Below, in pieces: positions 1-58,002 of a stretch of 64,000 bases of DNA. The notes below the pieces were generated by a model. The model worked only from the letters and a program-made list of their open reading frames with translations, ran no database searches and was not told the DNA's origin. How positions within the stretch are numbered: position 1 is the stretch's first letter; each line of letters opens with the position of its first letter. Made by a program: the position numbers and the translations under genes. The DNA comes from a virus: IMG/VR virus record IMGVR_UViG_3300036985_008365, positions 3,669-67,668 of that record; one strand, given 5' to 3'.

Positions 1-67
1 TTTATATGGCAATGGTTACACGGGATTTGACCCTAAAAACCAATACGAGCAAGAAGTTAAAAACGCT

Positions 68-613
68 TTGACTGAACTAAAGAACTATCCGAAAATGGGA
101 GTATCTAATGAATACACCAAAAGCGGAGCATTAAATGAAGTGCCTGACCAAATCTACCTCGTAACTATTATTGTTACCGTTGGGGACAACGAAGGTAGAG
201 AACACATTTTTTGGGGATTAGAGGTACGCACTCAAAGTGGAAATTATATAAGATATATTCAAAACGCCTACGACTTCCTCAACTTCCGTTCAACCATGGA
301 CTCAAAAGATATTCAGGTAATGCGTGACTATCAACAAGAAGCCGATAGAACCAAAACCAATGAGATAATTGACGGCTTGCTCATGACAGAAATTCCTCCT
401 ATTTACACTTCTTATTCAAACGTTCAACATTACGGAGGCGCTGAAGAGGGCGGTTGGTATTACCATACAAGGGAAGCCATGGAAGAGGTCACAGAAGCGC
501 AGTATCTTGAAATTGAAAGCGAACGATTAGACAGTTACGGAGAGGGTATTTCAGCGTCAGAGGGTTTCATTTTTGGAGAGGAAGAAAAATTAGGTCGAGA
601 ATACTACAGTTAA
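68..613 (+). CDS. Phage hypothetical protein with YGGxEEGGW motif
   Basis: 181-aa ORF; HYGGAEEGGWYY resembles a recurrent phage YGGPEEGGWWY motif (from memory). Confidence 0.6.
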   Translation: MTELKNYPKMGVSNEYTKSGALNEVPDQIYLVTIIVTVGDNEGREHIFWGLEVRTQSGNYIRYIQNAYDFLNFRSTMDSKDIQVMRDYQQEADRTKTNEIIDGLLMTEIPPIYTSYSNVQHYGGAEEGGWYYHTREAMEEVTEAQYLEIESERLDSYGEGISASEGFIFGEEEKLGREYYS

Positions 614-622
614 AAAAATAAA

Positions 623-3600
623 ATGACAAAATCATTAAAAACAGCAGACGGAAAGTATTGGGTTGGTGATAACATCAACCCTTCTGAATTTTTACTAATT
701 AAGGCACGTATGTATGGCTTTGGCGATGATAACGTGACCTTTGTTATTGAAAAATCTGAATTGGACAAAATTCCAAATAGTTCCACGTGGAGCACAAAAG
801 ACAAATCAGAAGCATTTGTTGAGGTCAAAAACGATATGTCCGACGAATATCAATATTCTTACGTTGCCGTTGTTACTGACCCTACGGAGGTGAAAAACTA
901 CGTCAAAGGATACAATCACAGCGTTTACTCGCTTACGGCTATTCCAAACGCGAATGAACAATATGAAGACGCTGTTGGAAAGTATGAATTTACGATAAAC
1001 TCAAAAACCTCAAATATGTTTGAAGACGGCGGTGCTGTTGGAGTTGGCGGTACAATGGATACGAGTATGGAAGACGCTCCAATGATAGGCGGTACTATGG
1101 ATTCAAGTATGTATGCTAAAGGTGGCTTAATAGTCACCTCGATTAAAGACATACCGAATTTTCAACAAAGACTTAACGAGGGTAAAATAACGTATCGTGG
1201 TTTAGGTATGGGAAAGGTCTCGAGTGATTTTTACAAATTAGCGGGTGATTCAGGAACACGTATTAAAGTTGACGGTAAAGAATATTACATTACTGACACA
1301 GAATTTGACACATTTTCAAGAGGTGCGGACGGACGTATGAGAATTAAATTTGATGCACCTCGCAGAAGTTCTTATGCCAAAGGCGGAAGTCTTGTAAGTA
1401 TGAGTTACGATAAGTACGTTGATGAAATGTATAAGCAGTACAAAAAAGCGAGTTATGACACGGCGGAAGCCTACGACACCGCTTTTCGTGATTTGGGAAT
1501 AGTGTTAAATGGTCGTTTTGATAAAAAGCAATTTGACGAAATGCTTCTTAAAAGAGGAATTTCAATGAAACGCGCTTGGAATGAATTTAAAAAATTCGCA
1601 GAAATATTTGTTGAAAATGGCGAGTACGTTAATCCCTTTCAAACTGAACTTTATGCGAAAGGCGGAAAAGCGGGTCGTTATTCAAAAATTGATTTGGTTG
1701 TAAAAAACTCATGGGGTAACGAAGAGCATGAAGTCGCTAAATTTAAGGCTACGGGTGATGCAATTATTTCAGCAAACGCCTTGGGAGCAAACGCCCCTTC
1801 AAACTATGATTATTTTGTTTCAAGCACTAATAAATATGCCAAAGGCGGTGCTGTTCACTACACCTCGGAGGGTAAACTACGTATGAAAAAAATGTACGAA
1901 AGTATTGGTGACTATTTGTCTTTCGCAAAAGCGGGCGACGCAATTTGGATTGGTAATGACCCTTCAGAATTTGAGTACGCGGGCAAAAGTCACTTGTGGA
2001 AAGTTCAAGAAGTCCGCCCTACTGAAATTATTGTCAAGGCTTTCGGTCGCACGGGAAGTTACAATATAAGCGCTAAATCTTTTAGTCAAAAAGTAATAGT
2101 GGTTGGAGACAACACGTATGCCCAAGGGGGTACTGTAAAACCCAATAAGCGCACACTTGACAAAATAGCAAATGTTTATTTTGACCTATTCGACGTTGTT
2201 GGTGCTGAAAGCGGAGGTGAACTCCGTGAAAACAAGTCCATGCTTGAGAAATTCTCAAAATTACTTGAGGTCAAGGTGAGCAAAATAATTGCTAAAAAGT
2301 CTCTATCAGAAAAGGATTTTGATTATTACGAAGATAACAATTATCACTTGTTGAATGAGTTTTTGTCTTGGAACGATTATTTTGTTACAAACGAGTTCAA
2401 GGATATGTACAAGCGCCTTGCTCAACAATACAAGCGAAGCAATTCAACTCTTGCTGACCCAAAATACATTGTTGTTAAAACCGCTAAAGCGGTAGCGCCT
2501 AAAGCACCCGTAATGGCAGAGGCGACTCCTTTGGCTACCCCAACAGAATCAACTTCAGGAAAGCCAAATTACAAGGTTAATGCTCAAATTAAATCAGTAA
2601 AGTTCACTACCAAAAGCGGTAAGACTAAAACAGTGTCGGGAGACATGGTTTTGAATGGAGCACACTACTTTAAAAAGGGTGGTTCAGTCAAGGCAGATTA
2701 TGAATACTTTCCTAAAGCAACAATTGTTGAGGTTGTTTTAACGGATGGCTCTAAAATAAAGCCTTTGAACGGGTATTGGATAAGCAAAACAGTTAAGTTC
2801 GGTACGGGTGGTGGAGTAAAGCCTTTTGAGTACACTGCAAACGGCGCTAAAATATACATAAACGGTACAAAGTCGGACGTAAAAGCAATGTACTTGGACT
2901 ACGTTAATAACTTCCTGACAATTGAAGGTTTTGCTGACTATTATAATATTTCTGACACCCAAGCAAAAAGTATTTTGAAAGCGGGTAAAGAGTACGCTGA
3001 AATGGACGGTCACTATGCACACGGGGGTCAATTTGAGGGGTCTTATGAGGTTGTCGTAGTTTCAAAAGAAGCCGAGAAAGACGGCGGACGCAAACATAAA
3101 GACCGTTTTTTAGTAGGTGCAGAAACACGTTCCGAGGCAATTGCTCAAGCAACAAAAATGTGGAAGGCTGATATGGACTCGAGCGACTTATCAATTGTTG
3201 AAGTTTTGACAGCGGATGAGTACCGAGAAAAATACCTAAAGACTAAATTTGCAGAGGGGGGTAACGTTGGAAATATAATGTCTTTTGAAGAGTTCAAGAA
3301 AACTATGCCCGTACTACACGATATGATAGTTCTTGACAATTCTGTTGAATACAAACCGATGTATGACAAATATTCAGGCACAACTAAATATTTTCGCCAC
3401 GGACGCAGAAACTTAAAAAGTTATACTCTTCGAGAAGCGTATGAACATTATGAATATTTTGCTTCAAAAGGAAAAGAGTACGCCAAAGGTGGAGAAGTCG
3501 AATTGAATGGAAAGTATGGTTCTGATAATCATAAATTGGTGTCTTTTGACCTTGACAATTTGGACGAATTTGAACTTACAAACTATGAACATTTTTCAAA

Positions 3601-4321
3601 ATCAATGCCCAAAGCAGAAGCGTTACAAGTTCTTATAAATAACGTTGAGGGAGACTACTCTCAATTGAGTGAAGAACTATCCGAAATAGCAGAAGGGCAA
3701 GAAAGCACTGAATACGCCAATGGCGGGCAATTTGAAGAGACAACTACATTTATTGTTCAAGTACATACTGAAACGGGCGACGAAGTTTTTAGCGTTGAAG
3801 CAACAGACGGAGTACAAGCGTTTCACGAAGCGAGATACTTGTTCAAAAAAGAGAACCCAAACTACAAAGGCGAGGTCTTTTTAAGTATGGTTGACAAATA
3901 CGCCAAAGGCGGTGTAGCCGACGACGTTAAAAACTTTTTTGGTGGAATTGGAAGAACGGTTAAGTCAGGATATGAAAAAACCCGTGACTTTTCGAAAAAA
4001 CAAATTCATGACCAAAAGAAAAGAATTGCTCTTGAGGTGATTGATGATACAAAAGACAAGGTAAGGTCAAACAGAGATAAGATGGACTTGAAAGGTGCAG
4101 AGGAAATTGTAGAAAACCACTACGCGGACGGCGGGATGGTTAAAAAAGCAACCAAGGCACAATATGAGAGTTATTTGAATGACTTGGGTACTCCAAGTTC
4201 AGACCACCCTGATAACGGCGGTCGAGTTTCTCTAAAAATGATTAACAAATACGGAACGTGGTTAAGAAAAAATGACCCAATTGCTTTTGAAGTTGGGTAT
4301 AATGAGTTTCGCACCCAATAA
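623..4321 (+). CDS. Modular polyvalent/polyprotein-like protein with 14 [YF]xxGG linkers
   Basis: 1232 aa; FEDGG, YAKGG x6, YAQGG, FKKGG, FGTGG, YAHGG, FAEGG, YANGG and YADGG separate unrelated short modules. Confidence 0.8.
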   Translation: MTKSLKTADGKYWVGDNINPSEFLLIKARMYGFGDDNVTFVIEKSELDKIPNSSTWSTKDKSEAFVEVKNDMSDEYQYSYVAVVTDPTEVKNYVKGYNHSVYSLTAIPNANEQYEDAVGKYEFTINSKTSNMFEDGGAVGVGGTMDTSMEDAPMIGGTMDSSMYAKGGLIVTSIKDIPNFQQRLNEGKITYRGLGMGKVSSDFYKLAGDSGTRIKVDGKEYYITDTEFDTFSRGADGRMRIKFDAPRRSSYAKGGSLVSMSYDKYVDEMYKQYKKASYDTAEAYDTAFRDLGIVLNGRFDKKQFDEMLLKRGISMKRAWNEFKKFAEIFVENGEYVNPFQTELYAKGGKAGRYSKIDLVVKNSWGNEEHEVAKFKATGDAIISANALGANAPSNYDYFVSSTNKYAKGGAVHYTSEGKLRMKKMYESIGDYLSFAKAGDAIWIGNDPSEFEYAGKSHLWKVQEVRPTEIIVKAFGRTGSYNISAKSFSQKVIVVGDNTYAQGGTVKPNKRTLDKIANVYFDLFDVVGAESGGELRENKSMLEKFSKLLEVKVSKIIAKKSLSEKDFDYYEDNNYHLLNEFLSWNDYFVTNEFKDMYKRLAQQYKRSNSTLADPKYIVVKTAKAVAPKAPVMAEATPLATPTESTSGKPNYKVNAQIKSVKFTTKSGKTKTVSGDMVLNGAHYFKKGGSVKADYEYFPKATIVEVVLTDGSKIKPLNGYWISKTVKFGTGGGVKPFEYTANGAKIYINGTKSDVKAMYLDYVNNFLTIEGFADYYNISDTQAKSILKAGKEYAEMDGHYAHGGQFEGSYEVVVVSKEAEKDGGRKHKDRFLVGAETRSEAIAQATKMWKADMDSSDLSIVEVLTADEYREKYLKTKFAEGGNVGNIMSFEEFKKTMPVLHDMIVLDNSVEYKPMYDKYSGTTKYFRHGRRNLKSYTLREAYEHYEYFASKGKEYAKGGEVELNGKYGSDNHKLVSFDLDNLDEFELTNYEHFSKSMPKAEALQVLINNVEGDYSQLSEELSEIAEGQESTEYANGGQFEETTTFIVQVHTETGDEVFSVEATDGVQAFHEARYLFKKENPNYKGEVFLSMVDKYAKGGVADDVKNFFGGIGRTVKSGYEKTRDFSKKQIHDQKKRIALEVIDDTKDKVRSNRDKMDLKGAEEIVENHYADGGMVKKATKAQYESYLNDLGTPSSDHPDNGGRVSLKMINKYGTWLRKNDPIAFEVGYNEFRTQ

Positions 4322-4342
4322 AATTTAACAAGTTAAAAAAAA

Positions 4343-6655
4343 ATGGTAAAACGCTTTGACATAAGAATCAATCACGATATGGGCGAGTGTCTGTATACCG
4401 TAGAGGCTAAAAGTTCAAAATCGGCTATTGAAACAGTCGAAAAAGAATGGCACAAAGACCACAAAGGATACACGGGAACAACCCCTAAATTTACTGTTCA
4501 AAAAACTTATACTCACGCTGAAAAAAAGTCGTTAGGCGGTTCAATCGAAGTTGGCGATGTCGTCAAAGTAAAGGAAGATACGAAAGGCGACAACTTTGGT
4601 TATGACGGTGATTATTATGTTGTTGCTGACAATGTTGGGTACGATAGAAAAAGTTTTCTAATTTCCGACGTAATGAAAAGAGAGCAAGGAGTTTGGGATA
4701 ATAAACAATTAGAAAAACTTTACGCCGACGGCGGTAGTCTTAACGAAGGTATTCCTCAACCAATTATTGATATGTTCGATGAATCTTATGTTTTCTTAAA
4801 AGCAAAATACCCACACTACGAAAATATGCCTCTTATTCAGGACACAGAAGAATTTTGGGATATGGTAGAAGACGTCCGTGAAAATTTTGACACCGACACC
4901 CCAACAAATTACGGAGAAATTGGAGAAGAACTTGTCCGAAATTACTTGTATGGTCATGAAAAAAGATTTGAAGAAACCCAATATGCAAGAGGCGGGACGT
5001 TGCAAGAAAATTTAGAAAAGGAGTTACACAAACTACAACGCGACTTGAATAGTAGCAGATTGAACACCTATTTCGAAGGAGACAGTTCTGAAGAAGAACA
5101 AGCAAGACAAAGAGAAAGAGAATCAAAACTAACGCGCTTCAACGAAGTGTTAAAATTGCTTAACCAAATGGATGGAAAATACGCCGAAGGTGGACGTACC
5201 CCAAGAGCGTGGGGATACCCTCCAAAAATGTCAAATCAGGATATTGTTAACTACTTAAAAGATTACAAATACGCTGTGATTGTGCCGTTAGACCACATTG
5301 CGGGCTTTATGGACAAAGTTTTCTTTATTTCATACGGTAGAAAAATGGGTTATTTAACCACTTGGGAAAAAACCCGTGAGGAGTGCCAATACACAATTGA
5401 AAATCTGCAAATGGGTGCAAGTGAAGGAGGTTTTAAATTACAAGCAAGAATTGTTAAATTGACGCCTGAAATTATTCACGATATTCTTGTTCAAACTAAC
5501 CACGCATATTCACAATTTGAAAACGGTGGTACAATTGATACAATTGAGTTTGCCGACGGCGGTCAAGTTCAGGGTAGTTCTTTCGATATTGAATACCGTG
5601 ACGACGAGGGTGACACATACAGCGAAAGTTTTGACACTTTAGAAGAAGCCCGTGCTGAAATGAAAAGACTACAAGGTGTTGGTTATAGAATAACTGAAAC
5701 TTGGAAGTATGTAAACAATACTTTTGTTGGGCGATTTGCAAAGGGTGGCGGAGTTGGTTTTCATAACGCTGACGACGCATTTGATTTTTGGGAAAATCAG
5801 GAAAATCAGCAACTTTCTGACGCCCAAAGAGTTTTATGGATTGAGGGATATGAATACGCAAAAGCGCACCCTGAACATAACGATTTTAATTTTTATGAAT
5901 GGGAGGAGTCTGTTTACGGAAATGAAAGCGTGCTTTCAGACGACGACAGAGTGGTTTGGCAATCAGGCTTCACTTTTTTCATTAATTACATAAATACTTT
6001 TGCTACGGGTGGCGCAGTCAGTTCAGGCATCAAAGTCGGTGATTGGGTAACACTCAAGTCCGACAAAAAGCGCTACAAGGTAAAACGAGTTTTGAGCAAC
6101 AATATGATTGAGATTACAGCGGGTGCAAAAACCTTGACTGTAAATATCAGTGACGTTGAAACAAATGTTAAGTTTTTCCGCTCAAAGTTTGTGCCCGTGC
6201 CAACAAATATCGAGGTCAAATACAAAATCGGAGACCGTCTAAAGTTCAATACTAAAAAGGGTATTACAGAGGTTGGAAAGGTGCTTTTGTACAAATACGT
6301 TCCTACGCAAAATACAATCATCTACACAATAGCAACGGACAGCGGTTGGAAGGCAAGCGTTTTACAAGAGAATTTGTCAAAAGAATATACGTCCTTTACA
6401 ATTCCCGCGAATAATACGCCAAGCCCCGCTCCCGTTAAAAATACGCCACCGCGTACTACTTTCAGTATTCCGTCTATTGAAGTAGGCGACAAAATTGAAA
6501 TAATTGGTTCTCCTAATTTGACGGGAACAGTAACAAAAGTGTTATCTTCGACAAGCGAAGCAGAGGTGCTTTTGAGTGATAGTACGGGTATGACTATAAA
6601 GAAAGGAAAATCAGTTCCGTTCACATTCAGCGGAAGTAAAATTAAAAAAGTTTAA
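4343..6655 (+). CDS. Modular [YF]xxGG protein with C-terminal SH3/KOW-like modules
   Basis: 770 aa; YADGG, YARGG, YAEGG, FENGG, FADGG, FAKGG, FATGG; repeated IKVGDxV/KIGDRL/IEVGDKI SH3-like starts. Confidence 0.75.
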   Translation: MVKRFDIRINHDMGECLYTVEAKSSKSAIETVEKEWHKDHKGYTGTTPKFTVQKTYTHAEKKSLGGSIEVGDVVKVKEDTKGDNFGYDGDYYVVADNVGYDRKSFLISDVMKREQGVWDNKQLEKLYADGGSLNEGIPQPIIDMFDESYVFLKAKYPHYENMPLIQDTEEFWDMVEDVRENFDTDTPTNYGEIGEELVRNYLYGHEKRFEETQYARGGTLQENLEKELHKLQRDLNSSRLNTYFEGDSSEEEQARQRERESKLTRFNEVLKLLNQMDGKYAEGGRTPRAWGYPPKMSNQDIVNYLKDYKYAVIVPLDHIAGFMDKVFFISYGRKMGYLTTWEKTREECQYTIENLQMGASEGGFKLQARIVKLTPEIIHDILVQTNHAYSQFENGGTIDTIEFADGGQVQGSSFDIEYRDDEGDTYSESFDTLEEARAEMKRLQGVGYRITETWKYVNNTFVGRFAKGGGVGFHNADDAFDFWENQENQQLSDAQRVLWIEGYEYAKAHPEHNDFNFYEWEESVYGNESVLSDDDRVVWQSGFTFFINYINTFATGGAVSSGIKVGDWVTLKSDKKRYKVKRVLSNNMIEITAGAKTLTVNISDVETNVKFFRSKFVPVPTNIEVKYKIGDRLKFNTKKGITEVGKVLLYKYVPTQNTIIYTIATDSGWKASVLQENLSKEYTSFTIPANNTPSPAPVKNTPPRTTFSIPSIEVGDKIEIIGSPNLTGTVTKVLSSTSEAEVLLSDSTGMTIKKGKSVPFTFSGSKIKKV

Positions 6656-6663
6656 TCAGGGTT

Positions 6664-9072
6664 ATGGAAAGAAGTCAGGCGTCTATGTACAAAAAAGGTG
6701 GTAGTTTTCACGAAGGTTGGGGTTTTAGTGATATGATTAAGTTGCTTGTGAAGGGCACTTCTATTGACCGAAACAAAATGTTCGGCGAGTTGAAAATAAC
6801 CTATCCCGACAATCAAGTTGAAAAGGAAGGCGACGATACAGTTGCAATTTATGTTCCTGACAGTCAAATCTCGAACGTTAAAAAAATGGCAAAACTTTTT
6901 AATATGAAAGTTGCCTATGCTGAAGGAGGCGAAGTTGATAGTGAAAAACACGCTTGGGGAGGTCTTTTTGGAGACAGCAAGAAACCTGAACACAACATGG
7001 CTTTTTATCTACACATTTTAACTGACCGAGGTACAACAATCCAATACGTTAGTGGAGATAGTATAACAGAAGCAAAAGAACGTGCTGTGAGTAGGCTACC
7101 CGCCGAATTAAGAAAAACAGCAAGAGTGGACTATTGGAAAAACATTACAAATGAATGGAAAAAAGGTCGCTCTAATAAAGTTTATGCTGAAGGCGGTCAA
7201 ATTGGGGACACAGTTGTTTTCCGTAGATATTCTGACGATGACAATGTTTCAGGCACAATAACAGAAGTTTTTCCTAAAGGAGCATACGAAGTAACCTCGG
7301 GATTTACAAAAAGTTTAGTGGAGCAAAACGAAATAGTCAGTATCAACAAACCAACTTCAAGTGCCCGTAAAAAGTTATTTGGAATTTTTGCCGACGGCGG
7401 TCGCACCGACACGCGAGTAGCCGAAATAATTTTGTCACAAATAGGTGGTATGGGTCGCGTCAAAATGATGACGGGCGGATACAACTTTGTGGCTCTCAAA
7501 AACGGAGTTTCTTTTAGAATCAAAAACCGTGGTGCAAACTTTATCAAAATCACCCTGAATAGCCGTGACCTTTACGACGTTGAAATTGGACGAATTTTCA
7601 ATTACAAGTACAAGATTGTAAAAACATTCGACGACGTTTACTTTGACCAACTATATGAAGTCCTATATGAAGGTACGGGTATGTATTTTAAACTATTTGC
7701 AAAAGGCGGTACAATTCAAAATGAAGAGCGAGATATGATTTTGAATCAACTCAAGCAAGTCAATCATCATGAAGAGGAGTTAAGGCAGATTATGGAAAAC
7801 AATCTTGACATTGAGCCATGGGTAATTGCAAAAATGGAAAGAGCAACAACTACCTTGAGCGACGTAACCCACTACCTTGACGGCAAAACTGAAAAGTACG
7901 CTGAAGGCGGAATGTTTCACGAAGTAGAGGAAATGAAATTTTACATTAAAGAAATTCTCGAAACACCCAACGGATTTCTAACTGTTATTGTTGCATGGGG
8001 CAAAAAGGTCAGCAACAAAATAACAATTTTTGTAAACAATAACGATTCTGACGATAGTCAAACCATAACATTCTCTGACTTGGATGAGGCAAGAGCAACA
8101 ATAGTAAGACCCGTATACGAAGAGGTTAAAAAAGTAGTACGTGAAGCGGAGGAATTTGGCTTTAAAAGCCCCATGAGTAATAGCGACAAGCAGTATGAGG
8201 CAATGAAAGCAAACCCTGAATACAGAAAAAATGCGTTACTTCTATCAGCAATGAAAGCCTTCTCGGACAAAAGCGCAACCACCGAGGAATTATTTCAGAT
8301 ATTCAAAAGAGTTGTTGGAGAAGACGTAACAAACGTCTCTAAAATGACACAAATGGCAACAGAATACAGAAACTATTTAATTAAATGGGACTTGTACGAT
8401 GACTATTTGGACTTTGTCAGTGACAACTATCCAAAAGATAGTGGTATATCTCGTTTTAAAGCGGGAGGGCGCACCAAAAAACCTTTAACAGCAAAAGAAA
8501 AAGCAATGTCAGATATTCGTAAAGAATATATCAAAATTAATGTTCCTTACTTAAACGAATGGTATTACCCTTCGGAGCAATGGAATCGACACGCCCTGAA
8601 AAACGACACGGAATTTTGGTTAGACTCTGAAGAAGAAATGCCTTACATAAGCCACGCAACAATGGGTATGTATGCTGACGGCGGAAAATTCAAAAGCACT
8701 CAAAAGTATCACCCTGACTTATTCAAAATCCCCGCTGAAACTTTGGCTAAAAAACATTGGATTGTTAAGGTTATTGTCGGTACAGAAAAGGCAAAATTCT
8801 TTTTTGAGCAAATGAGCGAAGTAGATGAATTTGTCGACAATATCAAACACCTTGCAGATGAGGTTTATGTTAGCAAAGAGAGACACTACGCTGAAGGCGG
8901 TAAAATTGATTTTACAACACTTTCCAAAAAAGTTGCTCAAAGATATGTTAATCAATTAGTGAAGCCAAAGTATCAAGCCGAATACGGTAAAAAGTACGAT
9001 GAGAAAGAGGCTGAAGAAGTTGGTCAAAAAGTAGCGGGTAAGGTTTATTGGAAGCAAAAACGTGCTAAATAA
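6664..9072 (+). CDS. Modular [YF]xxGG protein
   Basis: 802 aa; YKKGG, YAEGG x4, FADGG, FAKGG, FKAGG, YADGG; includes the phage-type module IILSQIGG..MMTG..DLYDVE..DVYFDQL. Confidence 0.75.
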   Translation: MERSQASMYKKGGSFHEGWGFSDMIKLLVKGTSIDRNKMFGELKITYPDNQVEKEGDDTVAIYVPDSQISNVKKMAKLFNMKVAYAEGGEVDSEKHAWGGLFGDSKKPEHNMAFYLHILTDRGTTIQYVSGDSITEAKERAVSRLPAELRKTARVDYWKNITNEWKKGRSNKVYAEGGQIGDTVVFRRYSDDDNVSGTITEVFPKGAYEVTSGFTKSLVEQNEIVSINKPTSSARKKLFGIFADGGRTDTRVAEIILSQIGGMGRVKMMTGGYNFVALKNGVSFRIKNRGANFIKITLNSRDLYDVEIGRIFNYKYKIVKTFDDVYFDQLYEVLYEGTGMYFKLFAKGGTIQNEERDMILNQLKQVNHHEEELRQIMENNLDIEPWVIAKMERATTTLSDVTHYLDGKTEKYAEGGMFHEVEEMKFYIKEILETPNGFLTVIVAWGKKVSNKITIFVNNNDSDDSQTITFSDLDEARATIVRPVYEEVKKVVREAEEFGFKSPMSNSDKQYEAMKANPEYRKNALLLSAMKAFSDKSATTEELFQIFKRVVGEDVTNVSKMTQMATEYRNYLIKWDLYDDYLDFVSDNYPKDSGISRFKAGGRTKKPLTAKEKAMSDIRKEYIKINVPYLNEWYYPSEQWNRHALKNDTEFWLDSEEEMPYISHATMGMYADGGKFKSTQKYHPDLFKIPAETLAKKHWIVKVIVGTEKAKFFFEQMSEVDEFVDNIKHLADEVYVSKERHYAEGGKIDFTTLSKKVAQRYVNQLVKPKYQAEYGKKYDEKEAEEVGQKVAGKVYWKQKRAK

Positions 9073-9086
9073 GCGGGGTATGTGGT

Positions 9087-9800
9087 ATGAACAAAAAAAC
9101 CGAAAATATTTTAGTATGGTCACTTGTTGGCGTAAGTATTCTTGCAGTAAGCGTCCTTGTTTATAAGGCACTTCGCAAGAAACCGACGCCACAGAAATTG
9201 AAGCATCCAAACCCTCAAAAAATATTGATAGTGGGGGATTCGCAAAGTGCAGTTCAAAGCCAAAGCGGTAGTGCTATAACATATACGTACCCTAACTTAT
9301 TAAGAAAACAGTTTCCTGACAAGTCTATTGACGTATCAGCCGTGGGCGGGAAAACGACAAAGTATATGCTCGATAATTTGCCCGCAAAATTGGCAAAGAC
9401 AAAATACGATAGGGTTTATATTTACGGCGGAGGAAACGATACGAGTTCCTCAATTATTTCTTTGAATACAACTCTCGCTAACATTCAAAAAATGGTAGAC
9501 CTATCTGCACAAAACGGCGCGGACGTATTTGTGAATTTAGGATATAAAGTAGAGGGTGATTTTGGCAACTACAAAATTATGCCTATAACCCAATACATAA
9601 CCGAGCGAACGCAGTGGATTCCTTTTGTTGAAAAAAGAAAAGAGTTACAAAGACTAATTCCTTTAACGATAAAAAATGCTAACTTCATACAACCTTATAG
9701 CCTCAATAGTTTGACCTCGGACGGTATACACCCCACAGCGGAAGGACACAAATTGGTAGCGGTAGAGTATTCAAAAACATTAAATACAAATCAAGCATAA
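9087..9800 (+). CDS. Membrane-anchored SGNH/GDSL hydrolase
   Basis: N-terminal TM; blocks IVGDSQS, YGGGND, DGIHP. Confidence 0.85.
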   Translation: MNKKTENILVWSLVGVSILAVSVLVYKALRKKPTPQKLKHPNPQKILIVGDSQSAVQSQSGSAITYTYPNLLRKQFPDKSIDVSAVGGKTTKYMLDNLPAKLAKTKYDRVYIYGGGNDTSSSIISLNTTLANIQKMVDLSAQNGADVFVNLGYKVEGDFGNYKIMPITQYITERTQWIPFVEKRKELQRLIPLTIKNANFIQPYSLNSLTSDGIHPTAEGHKLVAVEYSKTLNTNQA

Positions 9801-11237
9801 ATGGCTTTTGATTCAACATATTTAGCCCCCAACGGAAAACCAAGCAATTTGACGCCTGAACAATACCGCTTGGTACGTTCTCCCGAATTTAAGGCGTGGT
9901 TCGGTGATTGGCAAAACGACCCTGCAAATTCAAGTAAGGTAGTAGATGAAAATGGAGAACCTCTTGTAGTTTATCACGGCTCTTATGATTATGGTTTTAC
10001 TATTTTTAGTAAAAAATATAGAGGTAATACAACAGGTGCTAAATCATCTAAAAAAGGATTCTTTTTTTATGATAAAAAAGAGGATTCTGAACAATTTGCT
10101 AAAAAGAGTGCAAGTGGTGGTGTTTATGGAGTTTTTTTAAAGATTAAATATCCAAACATAAAAAACTATAATTCATATAATGTAGATGCTGATAAAGAAT
10201 TAATAAAACTTATAAATAGTTTTGAATTTGATGGGGCGATAGCATTAAATATTAAAGATGGGTTTGATATTGGTAATCAATATGTAGTTTTTGAACCCGA
10301 ACAAATCAAACTTGCCGATGGCACTAACACTACATTCGATGGTAACAATCCCGATATTCGATATGCAAAAGGTGGACGCACAATGTCTCAAACCCCTTCA
10401 CCAACAAAAGACCGAGTTTACGGAAGTCAGGTAAACCCTAAAAAAAGTTCTTCTAACCTATCAAGCGCCTTAAAAATTGAGTTCTCTGCGGAAACAACAA
10501 AAACAATTAAGGATAAGGTAGAAAAACATAATGCTGAATACCCGAATAAACAAATTACTGTCGAAAGCGCAAAAGCAGTTGTTCGAAGAGGTATGGGTGC
10601 TTATTCAAAATCACACAGACCAACGATAAGTGGCGGTAAACCCAATAGCAGAGTTGCTTGGGGCTTGGCAAGATTAAACGCTTTCATATACAAAATTCTG
10701 AAGGGCAAAAGCAAGTCAGGAAAATACAAACAAGACGACGACCTTATTTCGGAACTTGGCTACAAAGTTTCTCGTTTCGATAATGGCGGTAAAACAGATA
10801 TACCAACAAGATTTTTTGGAAGTCAAGGAGGCGGAGTTTTAATTTATTGTAAAACAACAAACCGTATACTTTTATTGTTACGCAGTCCTTTTGTTTTAGA
10901 GCCGTTTACGTGGGGCACTATCAGTGGGAAAGTAGAAGTTAATGAACAAATAGAAGATACTGTAAAACGGGAGGCTTATGAGGAAACGGGCTTTGAATTA
11001 AAGACGATTTACCCCTCCTATGTATTTGAAAGACCTAACTTCAAGTTTTTCAATTTTATCTCAATTGTCGAACAAGAGTTTGAGCCTCAACTTGATTGGG
11101 AAAATATTGATTACCTTTGGACAAGTTTAGATAATCTGCCTGAAAATTTGCACTTTGGCTTGGTGGAGTTGTTGAAGCACGGAAAAATCCAAGAGACTGT
11201 AAAACAATTGACTTCGAGGTTCAAAACGGGCGGTTAA
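9801..11237 (+). CDS. ADP-ribosyltransferase (ART-PolyVal-like) + unknown module + NUDIX hydrolase, [YF]xxGG-linked
   Basis: FKAWFGDW..SKVVDENGEPLVVYHG..QYVVFEPEQIK; NUDIX box GKVEVNEQIEDTVKREAYEETG; linkers YAKGG and FDNGG; ends FKTGG-stop. Confidence 0.8.
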   Translation: MAFDSTYLAPNGKPSNLTPEQYRLVRSPEFKAWFGDWQNDPANSSKVVDENGEPLVVYHGSYDYGFTIFSKKYRGNTTGAKSSKKGFFFYDKKEDSEQFAKKSASGGVYGVFLKIKYPNIKNYNSYNVDADKELIKLINSFEFDGAIALNIKDGFDIGNQYVVFEPEQIKLADGTNTTFDGNNPDIRYAKGGRTMSQTPSPTKDRVYGSQVNPKKSSSNLSSALKIEFSAETTKTIKDKVEKHNAEYPNKQITVESAKAVVRRGMGAYSKSHRPTISGGKPNSRVAWGLARLNAFIYKILKGKSKSGKYKQDDDLISELGYKVSRFDNGGKTDIPTRFFGSQGGGVLIYCKTTNRILLLLRSPFVLEPFTWGTISGKVEVNEQIEDTVKREAYEETGFELKTIYPSYVFERPNFKFFNFISIVEQEFEPQLDWENIDYLWTSLDNLPENLHFGLVELLKHGKIQETVKQLTSRFKTGG

Positions 11238-11273: not shown

Positions 11274-11462
11274 ATGGGTAACGACGAACAAAAACTTAAA
11301 AATATTGAGGACAGACTTTCTGTTGTGGAGCAATATCATAAAAACTTAACACCTAAAGGTGATTTGAAAACAGTTTTTAGTGTTGTACCTTTACTTGTTT
11401 TGACAACGACTTTAGGTCTTCTACTCGGTTATAATTTTTACAAAGTATTCAAAAGCAAATGA
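11274..11462 (+). CDS. Small membrane protein
   Basis: 62 aa, C-terminal hydrophobic helix followed by basic residues. Confidence 0.6.
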   Translation: MGNDEQKLKNIEDRLSVVEQYHKNLTPKGDLKTVFSVVPLLVLTTTLGLLLGYNFYKVFKSK

Positions 11463-12154
11463 AATTTTCAAAGCAAGAGAAGTTGATTATAGCGGGAGCG
11501 GTAGCAACGTCGGTTGTGCTTGGGATTGTTGTGTTTATTTCTATACGAAACAAAAAGAGAAAGTTGACAAAATTAAACCCTTATCAGAAAAAATTAAAAG
11601 ACGTCGCTGAAGCGGACTCTAAAAAATGGGCGGGTAAAAAAGAAACCGACCCTGAAGTAAGTGATTTTTTAATAGGCTATTGGAAACTACTCGGCAACAC
11701 CTTTACACCCGCTCAAATGCAGTCGCCTTCATTTCAAGATAAATGGTATTGGTCATCGGCATACGTTAGTCATTTGTTAAATTCAGCGGGCTTCAATTTT
11801 AAGCCAAGAAGTTATCACTCCACGTATACGGTGGATGCAAAAGAAAACAGAACACAAGGTACAAAAAATGCTTTTTGGGCTTTTAGACCTACTGAAAGCA
11901 AAAAGGTAGAAGTTGGTGACGTTTTAGTCAAAAATCGCGGTGGAAGTAATTACACCTACGATACGATACAGAGAAGTGTTCCCGCTCATGGTGACGTAGT
12001 GGTTGACTTTTTAGAAAAAGACGGAAAACGATATGCGGTAACTCAAGGAGGCAACGTTGGTAATAGTGTTACCAAAACAAACTATGAACTTACTCCAAAC
12101 GACCTTGTTGTTAACCCAACTAAATTTATTGCACATCTTAAATACGAAAAATAA
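11459..12154 (+). CDS. Membrane-anchored DUF2272-like (CHAP/NlpC-type) peptidoglycan hydrolase
   Basis: N-terminal TM; YWSSAYVS, HGDVVV and GGNVGNSV motifs. Confidence 0.7.
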   Translation: MKFSKQEKLIIAGAVATSVVLGIVVFISIRNKKRKLTKLNPYQKKLKDVAEADSKKWAGKKETDPEVSDFLIGYWKLLGNTFTPAQMQSPSFQDKWYWSSAYVSHLLNSAGFNFKPRSYHSTYTVDAKENRTQGTKNAFWAFRPTESKKVEVGDVLVKNRGGSNYTYDTIQRSVPAHGDVVVDFLEKDGKRYAVTQGGNVGNSVTKTNYELTPNDLVVNPTKFIAHLKYEK

Positions 12155-13608: not shown

Positions 13609-14082
13609 ATGAATAAAGTCATAACAGATAATGTCGTTAATACTGAAATCCAACAAGAGGTCAAGAAATTGTTGCGTAACATCAGCAACGGCGTGTCAAA
13701 ACTGTCAATTTCCAAGTTCAATAGAATTTTAAGCCAAGTCATAACCAAGTACACAAGTAATAGCGACGACATTGACGCAATTATGAAAATCATTTGCTCA
13801 CACTTTAATATAACAGAAGAAACGTTATATAATAGTAAAAGTAAAGGCGACGTGTACACGGCAAAACTTATCGCTTTTAAAATTATGAACACAACTCTTG
13901 GAGTCTCCGCGAGTGATATTGGAAAAAAATTTAACAGATACCAAAACTCTGTTTCGTATGCAATCAAAAAGTTTCATGGGTTAGAACCAAAAAAGCGTGC
14001 TGACGACAGAAAAATAATGGACGACTATACAGCAATAATGTTAGACGTCAAAAAGTATACAAATTCAAAAATCATCGAATAA
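13609..14082 (+). CDS. DnaA C-terminal-like HTH DNA-binding protein
   Basis: IICSHFNIT..L..SK..AKLIA..DIGKKFNR..SVSYAIKK. Confidence 0.7.
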   Translation: MNKVITDNVVNTEIQQEVKKLLRNISNGVSKLSISKFNRILSQVITKYTSNSDDIDAIMKIICSHFNITEETLYNSKSKGDVYTAKLIAFKIMNTTLGVSASDIGKKFNRYQNSVSYAIKKFHGLEPKKRADDRKIMDDYTAIMLDVKKYTNSKIIE

Positions 14083-14093
14083 AATAAACAGCA

Positions 14094-15227
14094 ATGTCGA
14101 CTAAAGTTTATACAAAGCGCGGTAATACTTCAATGAAGGAGAAAAAAATGGTTGAACAACTTCAGGAAAAAATTGCTGAAATGGTTAATCAAGACCCTAA
14201 CTTTACGTTTGAGCCCGCGAACACCCCAATTGAACTTCAGCGTTTGTATGAAACGTATTGTGTTGAAGACGCAGAACTTGTAGACACAGCCAATGAAACG
14301 GTGAGTAGAAAGTCCGCTTCCGATGAATTTAAACAAGAGGTAGACGTTGAGGAGCGCGACCCCAATCAACGTATGATTGACCCTTTCAATAGAGAAGAGC
14401 CAATTGTTCGTGATTATGTTTTAAGCAGTGAGTTCCCTGACGAAAACCCCGAAACGCCAAAAGAAGGTGGTGGTACTTACGATGAGCCAAGGTCTTTTGC
14501 GGAGTCTTTTGAAATTCCCGTAGCGGGAGAAGAGCCCGAGCCACCAAGTAATACGGGTGGTCGATTTAACAAAGTCCCACGTCAGGAAGAGGCATCAGAG
14601 CCAATGAATCCGTCTTTTGACACAATGGACAGTGCCAAACAACGTAAAAAAACTAAACGTTTTGCAAAAAGTATTGTAAATTTAACTTGCGATTTGCTTG
14701 AGAAGGGTTTTGAGTGGTATGTTTTAAAAGATATAAGCGAGGCAAAACTGACTGAATATGAGTTGAACGGCGAAATGGACTTGACTATTTTGTTAGACGT
14801 CAGTGAAAACCAACAAATGACTGTTAAGGAGTTTTTCCTTTCACAACACCAAGTTGTTAAAAGCGAGTCTCAAATTGACGCTGAAGATAGAGAAGATTTA
14901 ATTGAGGCTCTAACGGAGGTCTTTTTGGAAAAAGGAATCGCTCCAACACCAACGCAAGATTTACTTTTAGTTGGTGCAAGAGTGGTCGGTTTACAAGTGA
15001 TAAAAGCCGTAGGAATAACAAATTCAAACAATTCAGTTTTGAGTCAGTTGCGAAGCATGAAAAAAGAAGAAGTGCCTTATCAAGAGTTTAGAGAGCCGAC
15101 ACCTCCACCGAGACAGCCCGAGCCCTTTTATCAACAAGAGCCGTCGCCACAACAGCCACAACAGCCACAACAGCGACAAATAAGTGACTACGATATTATG
15201 TTTCCTCAAGAGGAAGTAAAAGAATAG
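14094..15227 (+). CDS. Acidic protein upstream of the packaging ATPase
   Basis: 377 aa, E/P/Q-rich, weak hydrophobic segment near the C-terminus. Confidence 0.6.
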   Translation: MSTKVYTKRGNTSMKEKKMVEQLQEKIAEMVNQDPNFTFEPANTPIELQRLYETYCVEDAELVDTANETVSRKSASDEFKQEVDVEERDPNQRMIDPFNREEPIVRDYVLSSEFPDENPETPKEGGGTYDEPRSFAESFEIPVAGEEPEPPSNTGGRFNKVPRQEEASEPMNPSFDTMDSAKQRKKTKRFAKSIVNLTCDLLEKGFEWYVLKDISEAKLTEYELNGEMDLTILLDVSENQQMTVKEFFLSQHQVVKSESQIDAEDREDLIEALTEVFLEKGIAPTPTQDLLLVGARVVGLQVIKAVGITNSNNSVLSQLRSMKKEEVPYQEFREPTPPPRQPEPFYQQEPSPQQPQQPQQRQISDYDIMFPQEEVKE

Positions 15228-15231
15228 AATT

Positions 15232-16056
15232 ATGGGAGAAAGAGAAGCGGGAATGATGGCTACCACGGGTATTCAGGGGGTTGGAAAAACCTACCAAAAT
15301 ATGTACGTGATAAAAGACTATGTAAAAGATAAGTTCTACAACAAAGTCCGAGGTCGTAAATGCCTTATTTTTGACACCAACGGCGAGTATACGGTAAGTC
15401 AATTTGCCAATAATGATATTCATAATTTTGACCCAAAACGGATTGCCCTCTCCGACGTGGGTAAATGGAGTAGAGAAGACCTAAAAGAGTGCCGAAGAGT
15501 TGACGCTAAAAATCTTTCAATTAGAGAAAAGAAGGAAGCAATTGAGCACATAATAAAGGACTTTAGAAACGGTATGTTAGTTTTGGAGGATATTAACACC
15601 TATATTCTAAACATGACCCACATGGAGGATATTGTTAGTGGACTTGTAAACTTACGCCACAGAGCCGTTGATGTATTGATTTCTTATCAGTCGCTCCGTC
15701 CCGTTGAGCCAAGAATTTGGCAAAATGCGCGTTGGGTACGGATGCACTATCAGGCGGACAACGTCAATGATATAAAGGGCAAGGTTACAAACCCAATAAT
15801 GTTTAAAATCGCTCAAAACATTGTTAACAACAGATATTTGGACGGAGACAAACGTTTTTTCCTTTATATTCATAACTTTGGGCAAAAAATAGAAGGAAAG
15901 TTCACAAAAAAAGAATTTGAGCAAGCGTGCCGAGACTATATGTTGAATAACAAAAAAATAATCAAGGAGTTCCGAGACGTGTCGGGTTGTTCACAAGAGG
16001 AGGCTATTAAAGGTCAAACTCAAATTTATATGAAGCAGTATTACGGAAATATTTGA
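15232..16056 (+). CDS. FtsK/HerA-superfamily (A32/P9-like) genome packaging ATPase
   Basis: Walker A GIQGVGKT; Walker B MLVLED; LRH Arg-finger followed by VDVLISYQ sensor; 274 aa with no nuclease domain. Confidence 0.8.
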   Translation: MGEREAGMMATTGIQGVGKTYQNMYVIKDYVKDKFYNKVRGRKCLIFDTNGEYTVSQFANNDIHNFDPKRIALSDVGKWSREDLKECRRVDAKNLSIREKKEAIEHIIKDFRNGMLVLEDINTYILNMTHMEDIVSGLVNLRHRAVDVLISYQSLRPVEPRIWQNARWVRMHYQADNVNDIKGKVTNPIMFKIAQNIVNNRYLDGDKRFFLYIHNFGQKIEGKFTKKEFEQACRDYMLNNKKIIKEFRDVSGCSQEEAIKGQTQIYMKQYYGNI

Positions 16057-35603: not shown

Positions 35604-36341
35604 TTGGGTTTAAAAATCGACATAGTAAAAGCGGTCGCTTTGAGTGGGTATGAGGGCAAGTTCCGAGACTCACTTAAAAGCGTGCTGAAATACATGGAGA
35701 AAGACCCTAAAATTAACAGCATACAGCGAGGGGCTTATTTATTGGCAACAGCCAAAATAGAAGCGGACTACTCTTTACAGCGTTGGGAGGCGGATTACAC
35801 TTGTAAATTACAAGGTTTACCCTATCAAGACAAGCCATGTGAAACGGCTCTTAACTATTACCGCTCTACAGACGGTAAAAAAAATTATTATACCCTTGGC
35901 TTGGACAGTCGAGGGCTACCTTATTTTGGGAGAGGATTGATTCAACTCACGGGTAAGGCAAATTATGAAACTTATGGCAAACTCATAGGGGTTGATTTGG
36001 TAAAAAATCCCGAAGTTGCTTTAGAGCCTGAAACGTCGTACAAAATAGCGTCAACGTATATGGCAAACCGAAAATACCAAGGTAAGACAACTTTTGAATG
36101 GGCTGATTTAGGGAATTTGACATACGCTCGTAAAACAATTAACGCCTCGTCAAAAGGACTTGATGACATACAGCGGACTTTTAATATGTGGGTCAATATT
36201 TTAGGACAAACAGCAAAAGTGGTAACGTCAACAGACGAAGCCCAAAAAAAAAAAATTAGTATAGGCGCTGTAATATCATCATTAATGGTAACAGTCAGTG
36301 TTTATGTTTTAATAACAAACTTCAAAGCGTTCAAGAAATGA
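35604..36341 (+). CDS. GH19 lysozyme-like muramidase with C-terminal TM
   Basis: LLATAKIE; YFGRGLIQLTGKANY; DLVKNPE; ARKTIN. Confidence 0.85.
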   Translation: MGLKIDIVKAVALSGYEGKFRDSLKSVLKYMEKDPKINSIQRGAYLLATAKIEADYSLQRWEADYTCKLQGLPYQDKPCETALNYYRSTDGKKNYYTLGLDSRGLPYFGRGLIQLTGKANYETYGKLIGVDLVKNPEVALEPETSYKIASTYMANRKYQGKTTFEWADLGNLTYARKTINASSKGLDDIQRTFNMWVNILGQTAKVVTSTDEAQKKKISIGAVISSLMVTVSVYVLITNFKAFKK

Positions 36342-39121: not shown

Positions 39122-39619
39122 ATGAAGGCTGTAACTAACATAAAAAACACAACAAACGACGTTATGACTAATGTTATGAACATTTTAAAGGAAAATATTA
39201 TTCACTTTTTTCTATTTATTGCGACTTTTTTTGCGCCCGTTGTCCCTATGATTGTAGCGACAATTCTTTTTATTTTACTCGATACCATTATGGGCTTATG
39301 GAAATGTAAGGCTCTTGGAGAGGTAAGAAGAAGTAACGGATTCAAGCGCGGGTTTATTCCAAAAATGCTAATTTATACGTTATTGATTGGAACTGTTTTT
39401 GTGGCGGACAATTATATCACGAACCAAGCGGTAAAACACTATACCCAATTTGACTTTGTAATCACAAAAATAATCGCCCTGATTTTAATATTTATAGAGG
39501 CGTGGAGTATAGACGAGAATTTCAAGTCTATTTATGGCTTTTCGGTTATCGGTCTGTTCAAAAAATTTATTACTTACTTGAAGTCACTCTTCAGAAAATT
39601 TTTAGATAATGAAAATTAA
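39122..39619 (+). CDS. Holin (phage holin family 4-like)
   Basis: ILLDTIMG..S.GFKRG..K..Y..IEAWSIDEN; three TM segments. Confidence 0.8.
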   Translation: MKAVTNIKNTTNDVMTNVMNILKENIIHFFLFIATFFAPVVPMIVATILFILLDTIMGLWKCKALGEVRRSNGFKRGFIPKMLIYTLLIGTVFVADNYITNQAVKHYTQFDFVITKIIALILIFIEAWSIDENFKSIYGFSVIGLFKKFITYLKSLFRKFLDNEN

Positions 39620-44361: not shown

Positions 44362-45138
44362 ATGAGTTTTCCTACATTAAAAAAGGGTAGCAATTCAGAA
44401 TCGGTTGGAGATTGGCAAGCGTTTTTGCGTGGTCAAAATTTGTATTTTGGAGCGGTAGATAATGATTTTGGAGCGGGTACAGAAAAAGCAACTATTGCCT
44501 TTCAAACAAAATACGCCTTAACTCCCGACGGAGAGGTCGGCAAAAAAACTTGTGAAAAGGCGGTACTTTTAGGGTTTCACATTGAGGTTTCAGCAAGCCC
44601 AAGTTTAACGGCAAAACCAAAATTTCCACCCTTGACGGGTAATGCTTCAAGAGAGAGGCTATTCGGTAAATTTGAATACCACGCAAGCCCTACAGCAGAT
44701 AACCCTGAACGTATTGTAATAACCGATGATTGGGCTAAAAAAAACATTGTTAAGGTTTCACTCCCCGCTTTAAGCAAAGCCACGGGTGGAAAATATACTT
44801 CAATGTATTGGCATAAGTCGGCAGATGAGCAACTTGTCAAATTTTTCGAAGAGTTGGAGAAGCAAAATCTACACACTAAAATTTTATCTTTTGCGGGGTC
44901 TTACGTACCGCGCTTTATAAGAGGTAGCAGAAGCCAATTAAGCAACCACTCATGGGGCACTGCATTTGATATAAATGTGCCTTACAACGGATTGAATAAA
45001 ACCCCCGCTCAAATCGGTCAAAAAGGCTGTGTGAGAGAGTTAGTTCCAATAGCCCATGAATTTGGATTTTATTGGGGCGGAAATTTTAGTAGACCCGACG
45101 GTATGCACTTCGAAATCGCCGTAGTTCAAAATTGGTAA
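44362..45138 (+). CDS. Endolysin: PG-binding domain plus M15 peptidase
   Basis: LKKGS..DNDFGAGT..FQ..PDGEVG; R..SNHSWGTAFDIN; WGGNF..DGMHFE. Confidence 0.9.
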   Translation: MSFPTLKKGSNSESVGDWQAFLRGQNLYFGAVDNDFGAGTEKATIAFQTKYALTPDGEVGKKTCEKAVLLGFHIEVSASPSLTAKPKFPPLTGNASRERLFGKFEYHASPTADNPERIVITDDWAKKNIVKVSLPALSKATGGKYTSMYWHKSADEQLVKFFEELEKQNLHTKILSFAGSYVPRFIRGSRSQLSNHSWGTAFDINVPYNGLNKTPAQIGQKGCVRELVPIAHEFGFYWGGNFSRPDGMHFEIAVVQNW

Positions 45139-57684: not shown

Positions 57685-57959
57685 TTTTCTTCATTTTTTT
57701 TAGCATACGCAAAACTTCATCGTTGTGGCGTTTAATTTCCAAATACTTTCTCGCTTGTTCTGAAAAAAAATTATGCTCCCACTCATAAAAACATATTAAG
57801 GTACAAATACCTTTCATTGTTGTACAATCAGGGTGGTGGTTTCGAATATCTATCGCAATGGAGTAAAAATTAAGAATACCATATTTTTCTTTGTAAAAAA
57901 TGCTGTCGGGACGGTGCTTTGTTTTTGCTATCATTACGTTTGTGTCAGTGATAAAATAT

Positions 57960-57985: not shown

Positions 57986-58002
57986 TTCTTTTCGTGAATA
58001 TT

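Follow-up and report, generated by a model that had tools for sequence, protein, structure and literature searches.

A conserved Gly-Gly linker separates small exchangeable modules in an array of phage polyvalent-type proteins and may mark a cleavable polyprotein

It is typical of cleaved polyproteins that a short conserved linker recurs between independent units, and several viral papain-like or clan CE proteases cut at or after Gly-Gly. Clan CE and ubiquitin-type proteases cut after the Gly-Gly pair, and some viral papain-like enzymes cut between the glycines. African swine fever virus (ASFV) pp220 and pp62 are cleaved by pS273R, and the sites of the adenovirus protease likewise follow a Gly-Gly consensus. 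During head maturation of the T4 and phiKZ type, a prohead protease trims packaged internal proteins, including the T4 ADP-ribosyltransferase Alt, at short consensus sites. A further class comprises the polyvalent proteins of phages and conjugative elements (Iyer, Burroughs, Anand, de Souza, and Aravind 2017, PMC5512222), in which a processing peptidase (zincin-like MPTase or assemblin-like) is a common but not obligatory theme. Here we analyze an array of open reading frames (ORFs) from an uncultivated phage, in IMG/VR virus record IMGVR_UViG_3300036985_008365 (67,668 bp, CheckV completeness estimate 37%), in which a motif ending in Gly-Gly recurs between small protein modules. The window is the 64,000-nucleotide stretch covering bases 3669 to 67668 of this record; coordinates refer to the window unless given as genome positions.

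The array consists of six adjacent ORFs spanning about 15 kb and encoding at least 4,690 amino acids (aa), with 46 [YFM]xxGG motifs and 48 modules of at least 25 aa, most of them 56 to 138 aa long. An earlier note on this DNA had described four ORFs carrying [YF]xxGG linkers. All four exist as given, on the plus strand and with ATG starts: ORF A (P0001, 623 to 4321, 1232 aa), ORF B (P0002, 4343 to 6655, 770 aa), ORF C (P0003, 6664 to 9072, 802 aa), and ORF D (P0004, 9801 to 11237, 478 aa). The array itself runs on 5' of the window, however, and includes two more ORFs, so that positions 1 to 11237 hold its larger part and the remainder lies upstream. U0 (genome 2 to 2032, outside the window) is open at its 5' end and has at least 676 aa and 8 motifs. 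U1 (genome 2074 to 4281, 735 aa) carries FAKGG, YADGG, and two copies of MAEGG, all upstream of the window, where only its last 203 codons appear (2 to 613, plus strand). From the translations we obtained the same [YF]xxGG counts as the note, namely 14, 7, 9, and 3 in ORFs A to D, but its pattern was too narrow at the aromatic position, where Met is also allowed.

The motifs divide ORF A into 15 modules of 31 to 184 aa, none of which belongs to a Pfam family. ORF B has a motif-free C-terminal stretch of 213 aa. ORF C carries MMTGG in addition to its nine [YF]xxGG copies and has a leader of eight residues ahead of the first motif (MERSQASM-YKKGG). ORF D contains an ADP-ribosyltransferase (ART) domain, a helical module, and a NUDIX domain, and its translation terminates, as the note had stated, on the motif itself (...RFKTGG-stop; FKTGG at D474-478, 11220 to 11234, with the stop codon directly after). 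The six ORFs are not one giant gene split by sequencing errors, as each has an ATG 9 to 42 nucleotides past the preceding stop, and the 802-aa ORF recurs at the same length in a relative that is 98% identical.

We compared motif counts with those in residue shuffles (2000 for each ORF). For [YF]xxGG, shuffle means were 0.38 to 0.97 per ORF and the maximum was 6, versus the 14, 7, 9, and 3 observed. The stricter [YFM]AxGG was found 11, 6, 7, and 1 times in ORFs A to D versus shuffle means of 0.02 to 0.09. Across the 92 window ORFs of at least 70 aa, [YF]AxGG occurs 25 times in the four array ORFs and never in the remaining 88, seven of which have a single copy each of the looser [YF]xxGG. At the DNA level, the pattern TAYGCNNNNGGNGGN matches the 67,668-bp record 24 times in the forward direction but has no match on the reverse strand or in a reversed control. 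We reject chance or low complexity as the source of the motif, since neither the shuffles nor the rest of the window have a comparable density. About two of the 33 [YF]xxGG motifs could be chance occurrences; the weak-looking candidates are FEDGG at residue 133 and FGTGG at residue 726 of ORF A and FENGG at residue 392 of ORF B.

Based on 1454 GG sites in 117 relatives of ORF C, the linker consensus is K-[YFM]-A-[KD]-G-G-x-[VI]; the junctions of the array follow K-[YFM]-A-[KDE]-G-G-x-[VI]. Position -3 is Tyr, Phe, or Met at 73% of these sites (Tyr or Phe at 51%, Met at 22%), position -2 is Ala at 46%, and the residue after GG is most often K, E, or M. Tyr, Phe, and Met swap for one another at orthologous junctions, and in this phage Met is present in just 2 of 35 [YFM]AxGG motifs. 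Over these 35 motifs synonymous sites vary: Tyr is encoded by TAC 11 times and TAT 13 times, Ala by GCT 13, GCC 12, GCA 8, and GCG 2 times, and all four codons are used for the second Gly. Codon choice at these three positions matches background usage while the amino acids are fixed. The linker FAKGG of ORF C (C345-349, 7696 to 7710, plus strand) provides a second view of the same constraint, as its first Gly, G348, is the sole invariant column in a 40-sequence alignment of diverged homologues, and the nearly invariant columns include its second Gly and one Gly of the next linker. Because synonymous sites vary while the amino acids stay fixed, we conclude from codons and alignments that selection on the linker acts at the peptide level and not at the DNA level. 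A conserved peptide in turn implies some protein-level reader, rather than a purely DNA-level junction. The earlier proposal that the linker DNA serves as a shuffling junction is thus weakened by the freedom of the synonymous sites, although the insertions described below do look like recombination in or beside the linker. As a separate observation, the first linker Gly is GGC in 21 of the 35 sites (genome 290 to 14043) versus 19% GGC elsewhere in the same ORFs, which may reflect avoidance of GGAGG or of G-runs.

Wherever module boundaries can be judged, the [YFM]xxGG motifs of the array sit at them. Placement at domain boundaries had been claimed before, and Pfam envelopes, two AlphaFold models, and the end of a stand-alone homologue all agree with it. 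In ORF D and 19 relatives (29 Pfam matches covering 2811 aa), no motif falls inside an envelope, versus 26.2 expected under uniform placement, and many of the domains start or finish 3 to 10 aa from a motif. In ORF D these domains are ART-PolyVal (D49-179, 9945 to 10337; E 3.3e-20, above the curated cutoff) and NUDIX (D350-454, 10848 to 11162; E 9.3e-11), with a middle module between them (D193-325, 10377 to 10775). The Tyr of the linker YAKGG (D188-192, 10362 to 10376) is the final residue of the ART tail NPDIR[YF].

The ORF D model predicts with confidence an ART region (residues 10-176, predicted local distance difference test [pLDDT] about 90) and a helical middle module (residues 222-320, pLDDT 71 to 97). 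YAKGG lies in the segment between them (177-221, mostly below 50), and FDNGG stands where another low-confidence stretch begins. Folds in this model match ADP-ribosyltransferases of the PARP and diphtheria toxin types and NUDIX proteins of the Dcp2/MutT type. The second model, of C165-425, was built on the 40-sequence alignment and gave no Foldseek match to the PDB at E <= 0.001. It consists of an alpha/beta domain at residues 251-338 (pLDDT about 90) and a helical hairpin at 353-406 (pLDDT about 80), which correspond to module C247-344 (7402 to 7695, plus strand; family phrog_9437) and to module C350-411 (7711 to 7896, plus strand), a conserved two-helix hairpin (HH..WV.AK..RA..DLSDVTHYLDG). 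FAKGG is placed in the loop between the two domains: residues 339-352 have no helix or strand, and residues 347-351 have pLDDT below 50. FADGG and YAEGG fall within flanking segments that are also below 50. In addition, an Escherichia coli protein homologous to C247-344 ends in ...TGLATRL-stop, which aligns with ...TGMYFKL, directly before FAKGG. Envelopes, both models, and this plasmid homologue lead us to reject the motif as a part of folded domains.

The same module, C247-344, shows that an array unit can stand alone. Free-standing proteins of about 100 aa in Sinorhizobium, Ralstonia, Vibrio, and Morganella phages match it, with 34 to 42% identity for the first three hosts, and further matches come from 809 plasmid records, of which 705 are predicted to be conjugative and most are from Escherichia or Salmonella. 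In an E. coli MOBP plasmid (L067, 4980 to 5303), a 107-aa homologue heads a run of small hypothetical genes. These stand-alone phrog_9437 genes of plasmids and phages are homologous to the array module but carry no linker motif.

Modules are mostly unrelated to one another, as the note had it, and this holds at the level of BLASTP (E <= 1e-3), which detected one clear homologous pair and one marginal pair among the 48 modules. The clear pair has 86% identity and links the two upstream ORFs; it is a duplicated 59-aa module at genome 1424 to 1600 and 2479 to 2655 (...TYIPNE.IESIKTRFGQTF.GKDVLDGAYVK...FEEEEYEYA.GG). An acidic stretch of this kind, FEEEE[YF]EYAKGG, was found repeatedly before linkers in unrelated relatives.

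The earlier note had also suggested looking for module swaps that break at the motif in related genomes, and alignment ends and insertions do cluster there. When ORF C was compared by BLASTP with 117 mosaic relatives, 169 local alignments resulted, in which 210 of 310 internal ends on the query side (68%) were no more than 8 aa from a motif, versus 21% under random placement, and 170 of 293 ends on the subject side (58%) were near one, versus 19%. An independent repeat with ORF A and 33 relatives, from which we left out beforehand the near-identical P0149 as uninformative on breakpoints, gave 49 of 90 query ends (54% versus 20%) and 45 of 89 subject ends (51% versus 19%). A conserved motif draws alignments up to it, so these fractions are to be read with that in mind, but the motif still marks where homology stops. 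Position within the protein is also free. The module at C345-416 starts anywhere from 1% to 92% along the subject protein (27 subjects), and the middle module of ORF D forms the N terminus of a 2053-aa array protein in a related record (G003, 48% identity) and takes many other positions elsewhere. P0149 and ORF A share 90% identity in the columns that align; P0149 contains a 68-aa insertion made up of exactly one module plus one motif, bracketed NYAKGG...NYAKGG, and P0150 has a 72-aa insertion of the same type. Sequence comparison thus shows the modules to be cassettes, which occur alone, reordered, and in other proteins, and which are gained or lost whole with breakpoints in the linker.

The proteins belong to a known class. 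The earlier note had assigned them to the phage polyvalent proteins, and this assignment holds based on ART-PolyVal and NUDIX here, the only Pfam families in ORFs A to D (both in ORF D), and on anti-restriction and toxin-like domains in relatives. A search with ORF C returned 148 proteins which, save for three close relatives, share single modules only (6 to 55% query coverage). Pfam scans of 39 of these relatives identified ArdA, ART-PolyVal, LPD11, RadC, RelA_SpoT, Zeta toxin, NUDIX, DUF2958, DUF6496, DUF6926, and DUF5661, and LPD1 is also among the domains of motif-rich relatives. At E <= 0.001, 12,554 representative proteins match the three modules of ORF D; among the best 149 of these, a density of 5 or more motifs per 1000 aa is reached by 99, and just 3 fall below 2. 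Judging from these matches, motif-linked proteins are common in metagenomes.

Within this class the linker appears to set a group apart. The closest ART-PolyVal relatives in IMG/VR lie in giant motif-free ORFs (1443 to 5613 aa in the five examined), and 33 ART-based loci contained no motif-rich ORF, with one ORF having 2 motifs in 2866 aa. In the motif-free giants the ART domain ends in ...NPDIR[FY], and the Tyr of YAKGG in ORF D is the same residue. Because the nearest ART-PolyVal relatives sit in motif-free giants, we treat the motif-linked proteins as a distinct subclass. In the main text of PMC5512222 the words "linker" and "glycine" have 0 occurrences, and its supplements may list such proteins. 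A full-text literature search, which did not extend to those supplementary lists, returned nothing of relevance on the linker or on phage Gly-Gly polyproteins. Thus, the class is known, and its subclass of linker-delimited cassette strings appears from these searches to be undescribed.

Relatives among cultured phages (50,697 phage records) are limited to the free-standing module. Megablast of the whole region and tblastn of ORF A, ORF B, and a downstream ATPase gave 0 matches, and tblastn of ORF C found the stand-alone module only. A related-locus search with ORF C as the sole query likewise gave no relatives. Searching with module C350-411, we found five more IMG/VR records (G001 to G005), all with motif-rich ORFs; including this phage, the six related records are 37 to 86% complete, with G001 the most complete (86%).

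Compared with the systems outlined at the start, the array resembles the structural or core polyproteins of ASFV and adenovirus in having at its junctions a short consensus in which a hydrophobic residue comes before a closing Gly-Gly. In those polyproteins the sites are few and the clan CE protease is known, whereas this array has about 46 sites with the hydrophobic residue at P5 and not P4, a bacterial host, no detected C48/CE-like protease, and a cleavage that we only infer. Like T4 and phiKZ head maturation, in which injected effectors are cut in the head, the array has an ART among its cargo; unlike those systems, which remove one propeptide per protein at sites ending in Glu, its linkers separate dozens of modules. 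Nor are its units copies of one fold, as in polyubiquitin-like head-to-tail repeats, by the BLASTP comparison of the 48 modules. With the polyvalent proteins of PMC5512222 the array shares multidomain phage proteins with unrelated domains in one polypeptide, the signature domain ART-PolyVal together with NUDIX here and ArdA, RadC, RelA/SpoT, Zeta, and LPD domains in relatives, many small uncharacterized domains, and extensive mosaicism; delivery along with the DNA is proposed for both. The array differs in its single conserved linker at each junction, its mostly very small modules, its distribution over six genes, and the absence of the proposed processing enzyme, the zincin-like MPTase, which was found in 0 of 5 records. 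Nor did any of the 48 modules contain HExxH, or Pfam scans detect a peptidase family in the array.

We favor a cleavable polyprotein as the best single reading of the array, tentatively and with slightly less confidence than an even chance would carry. The reader of the linker would most likely be a protease specific for this site, cutting at Gly-Gly or directly behind it; alternatively it could cut between the two glycines, or after the Tyr, Phe, or Met and leave an N-terminal Ala. Cutting would release dozens of small effectors, including an ADP-ribosyltransferase, a NUDIX hydrolase, and the domain that stands alone in conjugative plasmids, to which relatives would add ArdA, RelA/SpoT, Zeta, and RadC. 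Release would occur either at head maturation or after injection with the DNA. The array lies on the same strand as, and upstream of, lysis and tail-like genes, with no portal, MuF, or capsid gene recognized, and directly upstream of a conserved core common to the related records. This position fits late or virion-associated genes, and class membership together with the position is the ground for supposing that the proteins may be packaged in the virion.

A protease is favored as the reader because motifs occur at termini and after leaders, because the partition into ORFs varies, and because repeated conserved linkers typify cleaved polyproteins. Several motifs stand where nothing needs joining: ORF D ends in GG-stop, the first upstream ORF ends 5 aa past a GG, and leaders of just 5 to 13 aa precede the first motif in ORF C and several relatives. 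The array is split into six ORFs here and into proteins of 1634 and 2053 aa in G003, and because this partition differs between related phages, covalent linkage of particular modules seems unimportant.

Several results weigh against cleavage. Pfam and PHROGs searches of all 92 window ORFs yielded no candidates beyond a peptidase of the M15 endolysin type and a DUF2272 protein with a membrane anchor. Six-frame searches found RadC/JAB in 0 of 6 records and Peptidase_C48, Peptidase_S78, and MPTase-PolyVal in 0 of 5 records each. These negatives are weak, because the records are 37 to 86% complete and most genes match no family. Self-cleavage is unlikely, since GG is followed most commonly by K, E, or M and not by one of the nucleophiles S, T, or C. 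No cultured relative turned up either, with 0 matches of ORF A, ORF B, or the ATPase in the phage records searched. Known polyvalent proteins include uncleaved ones such as the N4 virion RNA polymerase, according to the main text of PMC5512222, and concatenation does not require a linker, because the closest ART-PolyVal giants have none. Finally, low pLDDT at the linkers stems partly from shallow alignments, and residues 1-81 of the C165-425 model and the NUDIX part of the ORF D model are low as well; as such low-confidence parts reflect shallow alignments, only boundaries beside confident domains count.

Three individual proteins were considered as the protease. The DUF2272 protein (11459 to 12154, plus strand), encoded by the first gene past the array, has a papain-like fold and an N-terminal transmembrane helix. 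The treatment of the family in PMC10318531 places it in the NlpC/P60-CHAP group, with Ser replacing Cys, and phmmer against the PDB gave only chance-level matches. We judge it unlikely to cut the linker because of its anchor and its membership in this amidase group; it is more likely an envelope or cell wall enzyme. The gene interposed between ORFs C and D (9087 to 9800, plus strand) has no linker motif and encodes a GDSL/SGNH hydrolase with an N-terminal transmembrane helix, which is not a peptidase family. RadC/JAB was the third candidate for a Gly-Gly peptidase; of the 39 relatives scanned, one or more carry it, but none of the six records does.

The main rival to cleavage, which we consider unlikely though a serious contender, is that the proteins remain uncleaved, like beads on a string, and that the linker is a conserved hinge recognized by a non-proteolytic partner (a packaging or scaffold adaptor, an ejection channel, or a chaperone) or used for domain-by-domain unfolding and refolding during threading into the host. 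This would agree with the protease not found in six records, and with the small size of the modules and predicted flexibility of the linkers in the models. Two further features fit it: an FtsK/HerA/TrwB-like ATPase is kept just downstream in 6 of 6 records, and the basic C-terminal modules of relatives, described below, resemble one targeting signal per whole protein. There is also precedent in N4 virion RNA polymerase, ArdC, and TraC1, which are moved full-length according to the main text of PMC5512222. A plain hinge, however, leaves unexplained why eight positions are conserved over dozens of unrelated junctions and in very diverged phages, and why the motif is found at an extreme C terminus and after leaders of 5 to 13 aa. 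The variable partition into ORFs, by making covalent linkage seem unimportant, also counts against an uncleaved string.

Two other explanations would place the cause in the DNA or in translation. The linker might be kept mainly as a recombination junction: only modules with the shared linker could pass between phages, with the module pool becoming enriched for a shared linker without any protein that reads the peptide. The homology breakpoints at the motif, the insertions of one module plus one motif between repeated motif copies in 90%-identical relatives, and the GGC bias at the first Gly (21 of 35 versus 19% background) are all what such a junction would leave. Yet the Tyr, Ala, and second-Gly codons follow background while the residues are fixed, the shared DNA amounts to at most about 12 to 14 nucleotides, and the exchange of Tyr, Phe, and Met at orthologous junctions, despite codons at least two bases apart, points to selection on residue type; we therefore regard this explanation as improbable. 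Least probable of all, and by our estimate very improbable, is that the motif is left over from, or serves in, gene fission and fusion with internal translation starts, the modules being made separately from internal Met codons, K-M-A-K corresponding to AAA-AUG-GCN-AAA and the Tyr and Phe forms being fused derivatives. Met does make up 22% of position -3, some relatives begin MADGG..., MENGG..., or MGGAV..., and array ORF boundaries lie at or beside motifs. But at 51% of sites the residue is Tyr or Phe, neither of which can start translation, Met occurs in just 2 of the 35 [YFM]AxGG motifs of this phage, and the invariant Gly-Gly would go unexplained.

If the linker is cleaved, polyprotein processing would reach from eukaryotic viruses to phages and would provide a compact natural form of multi-effector delivery. 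It is conceivable, though we lean toward doubt, that this is the first true polyprotein system of a tailed or other double-stranded DNA phage lineage, with one linker, a Gly-Gly-directed protease, and about 50 portable small anti-host effectors. Such a system would represent a widespread and unrecognized organization of phage counter-defense arsenals, as motif-rich relatives are abundant in metagenomes, and would yield a catalogue of domain boundaries for hundreds of uncharacterized effector families. Polyvalent proteins are thought to be a main vehicle of phage and plasmid counter-defense, and the linker gives a concrete handle on how their domains are deployed. It predicts the start and end of each effector, and with them dozens of 60- to 140-aa domains from this window; it also predicts a specific reader, protease or other, and would explain how arsenals are reshuffled between phages.

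Many relatives (P0036 to P0125) terminate in one of a small set of conserved basic modules, for example ...KVAGKVYQQQVAKKKIVRKLQRKTN, ...AKRIVGSMRKKGK, or a tail of 11 residues, ...SGWKHKxKC, past the last GG. The end of ORF C is of the first type. The basic C-terminal modules could be targeting signals.

Each of the six records, five of which were picked through this module, has a single copy of the hairpin C350-411 (HH..EL...WV.AK..RA..DLSDVTHYLDG). Among relatives, the module is found in 90 of 117 for ORF C, but in just 5 of 34 for ORF A and 1 of 149 for ORF D. Its DNA pattern matched just two species-representative prokaryote genomes. One match is an 11.7-kb contig of a metagenome-assembled genome binned as Alphaproteobacteria (L051, RFNS01000279.1), probably phage DNA, on which three ORFs are rich in the motif; the other is a Pseudoalteromonas peptidolytica contig (L050) with no ORF of at least 100 aa over the match.

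The conserved core just downstream of the arrays lies at 13609 to 16056 on the plus strand here (also L052, L055, L047, L058, and L062). It comprises a DnaA_C-like helix-turn-helix protein in 4 of 6 records, a 377-aa acidic Pro-rich protein in 6 of 6, and, as its third gene, an FtsK/HerA/TrwB-like P-loop ATPase of 274 aa, also in 6 of 6. The Walker A sequence of this ATPase is GVGKT, and the protein is 65 to 72% identical in three records; its matches to DUF87/HerA and TrwB are weak. In G003 a collagen-like tail fiber is encoded further downstream of the core. PHROGs and Pfam scans of the related records identified little besides lysins, glycosyltransferases, and tail fibers, and Terminase_6N and an HK97-type protease had no match in five records, which raises the question of how DNA is packaged in this lineage.

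Elsewhere in the window, the lysis genes encode a GH19-type endolysin (35604 to 36341), a holin (Phage_holin_4_1, 39122 to 39619), and a second lysin with PG_binding_1 and Peptidase_M15_4 domains (44362 to 45138). Gene strand turns to minus at about 45.2 kb, at the peak of cumulative GC skew. The minus-strand block (45678 to 47073 and 56533 to 58902) encodes HAD_SAK_2, DUF4406, a ParB-like protein, an HNH endonuclease, DUF551, and a 383-aa phrog_11143 protein with a GNAT domain.

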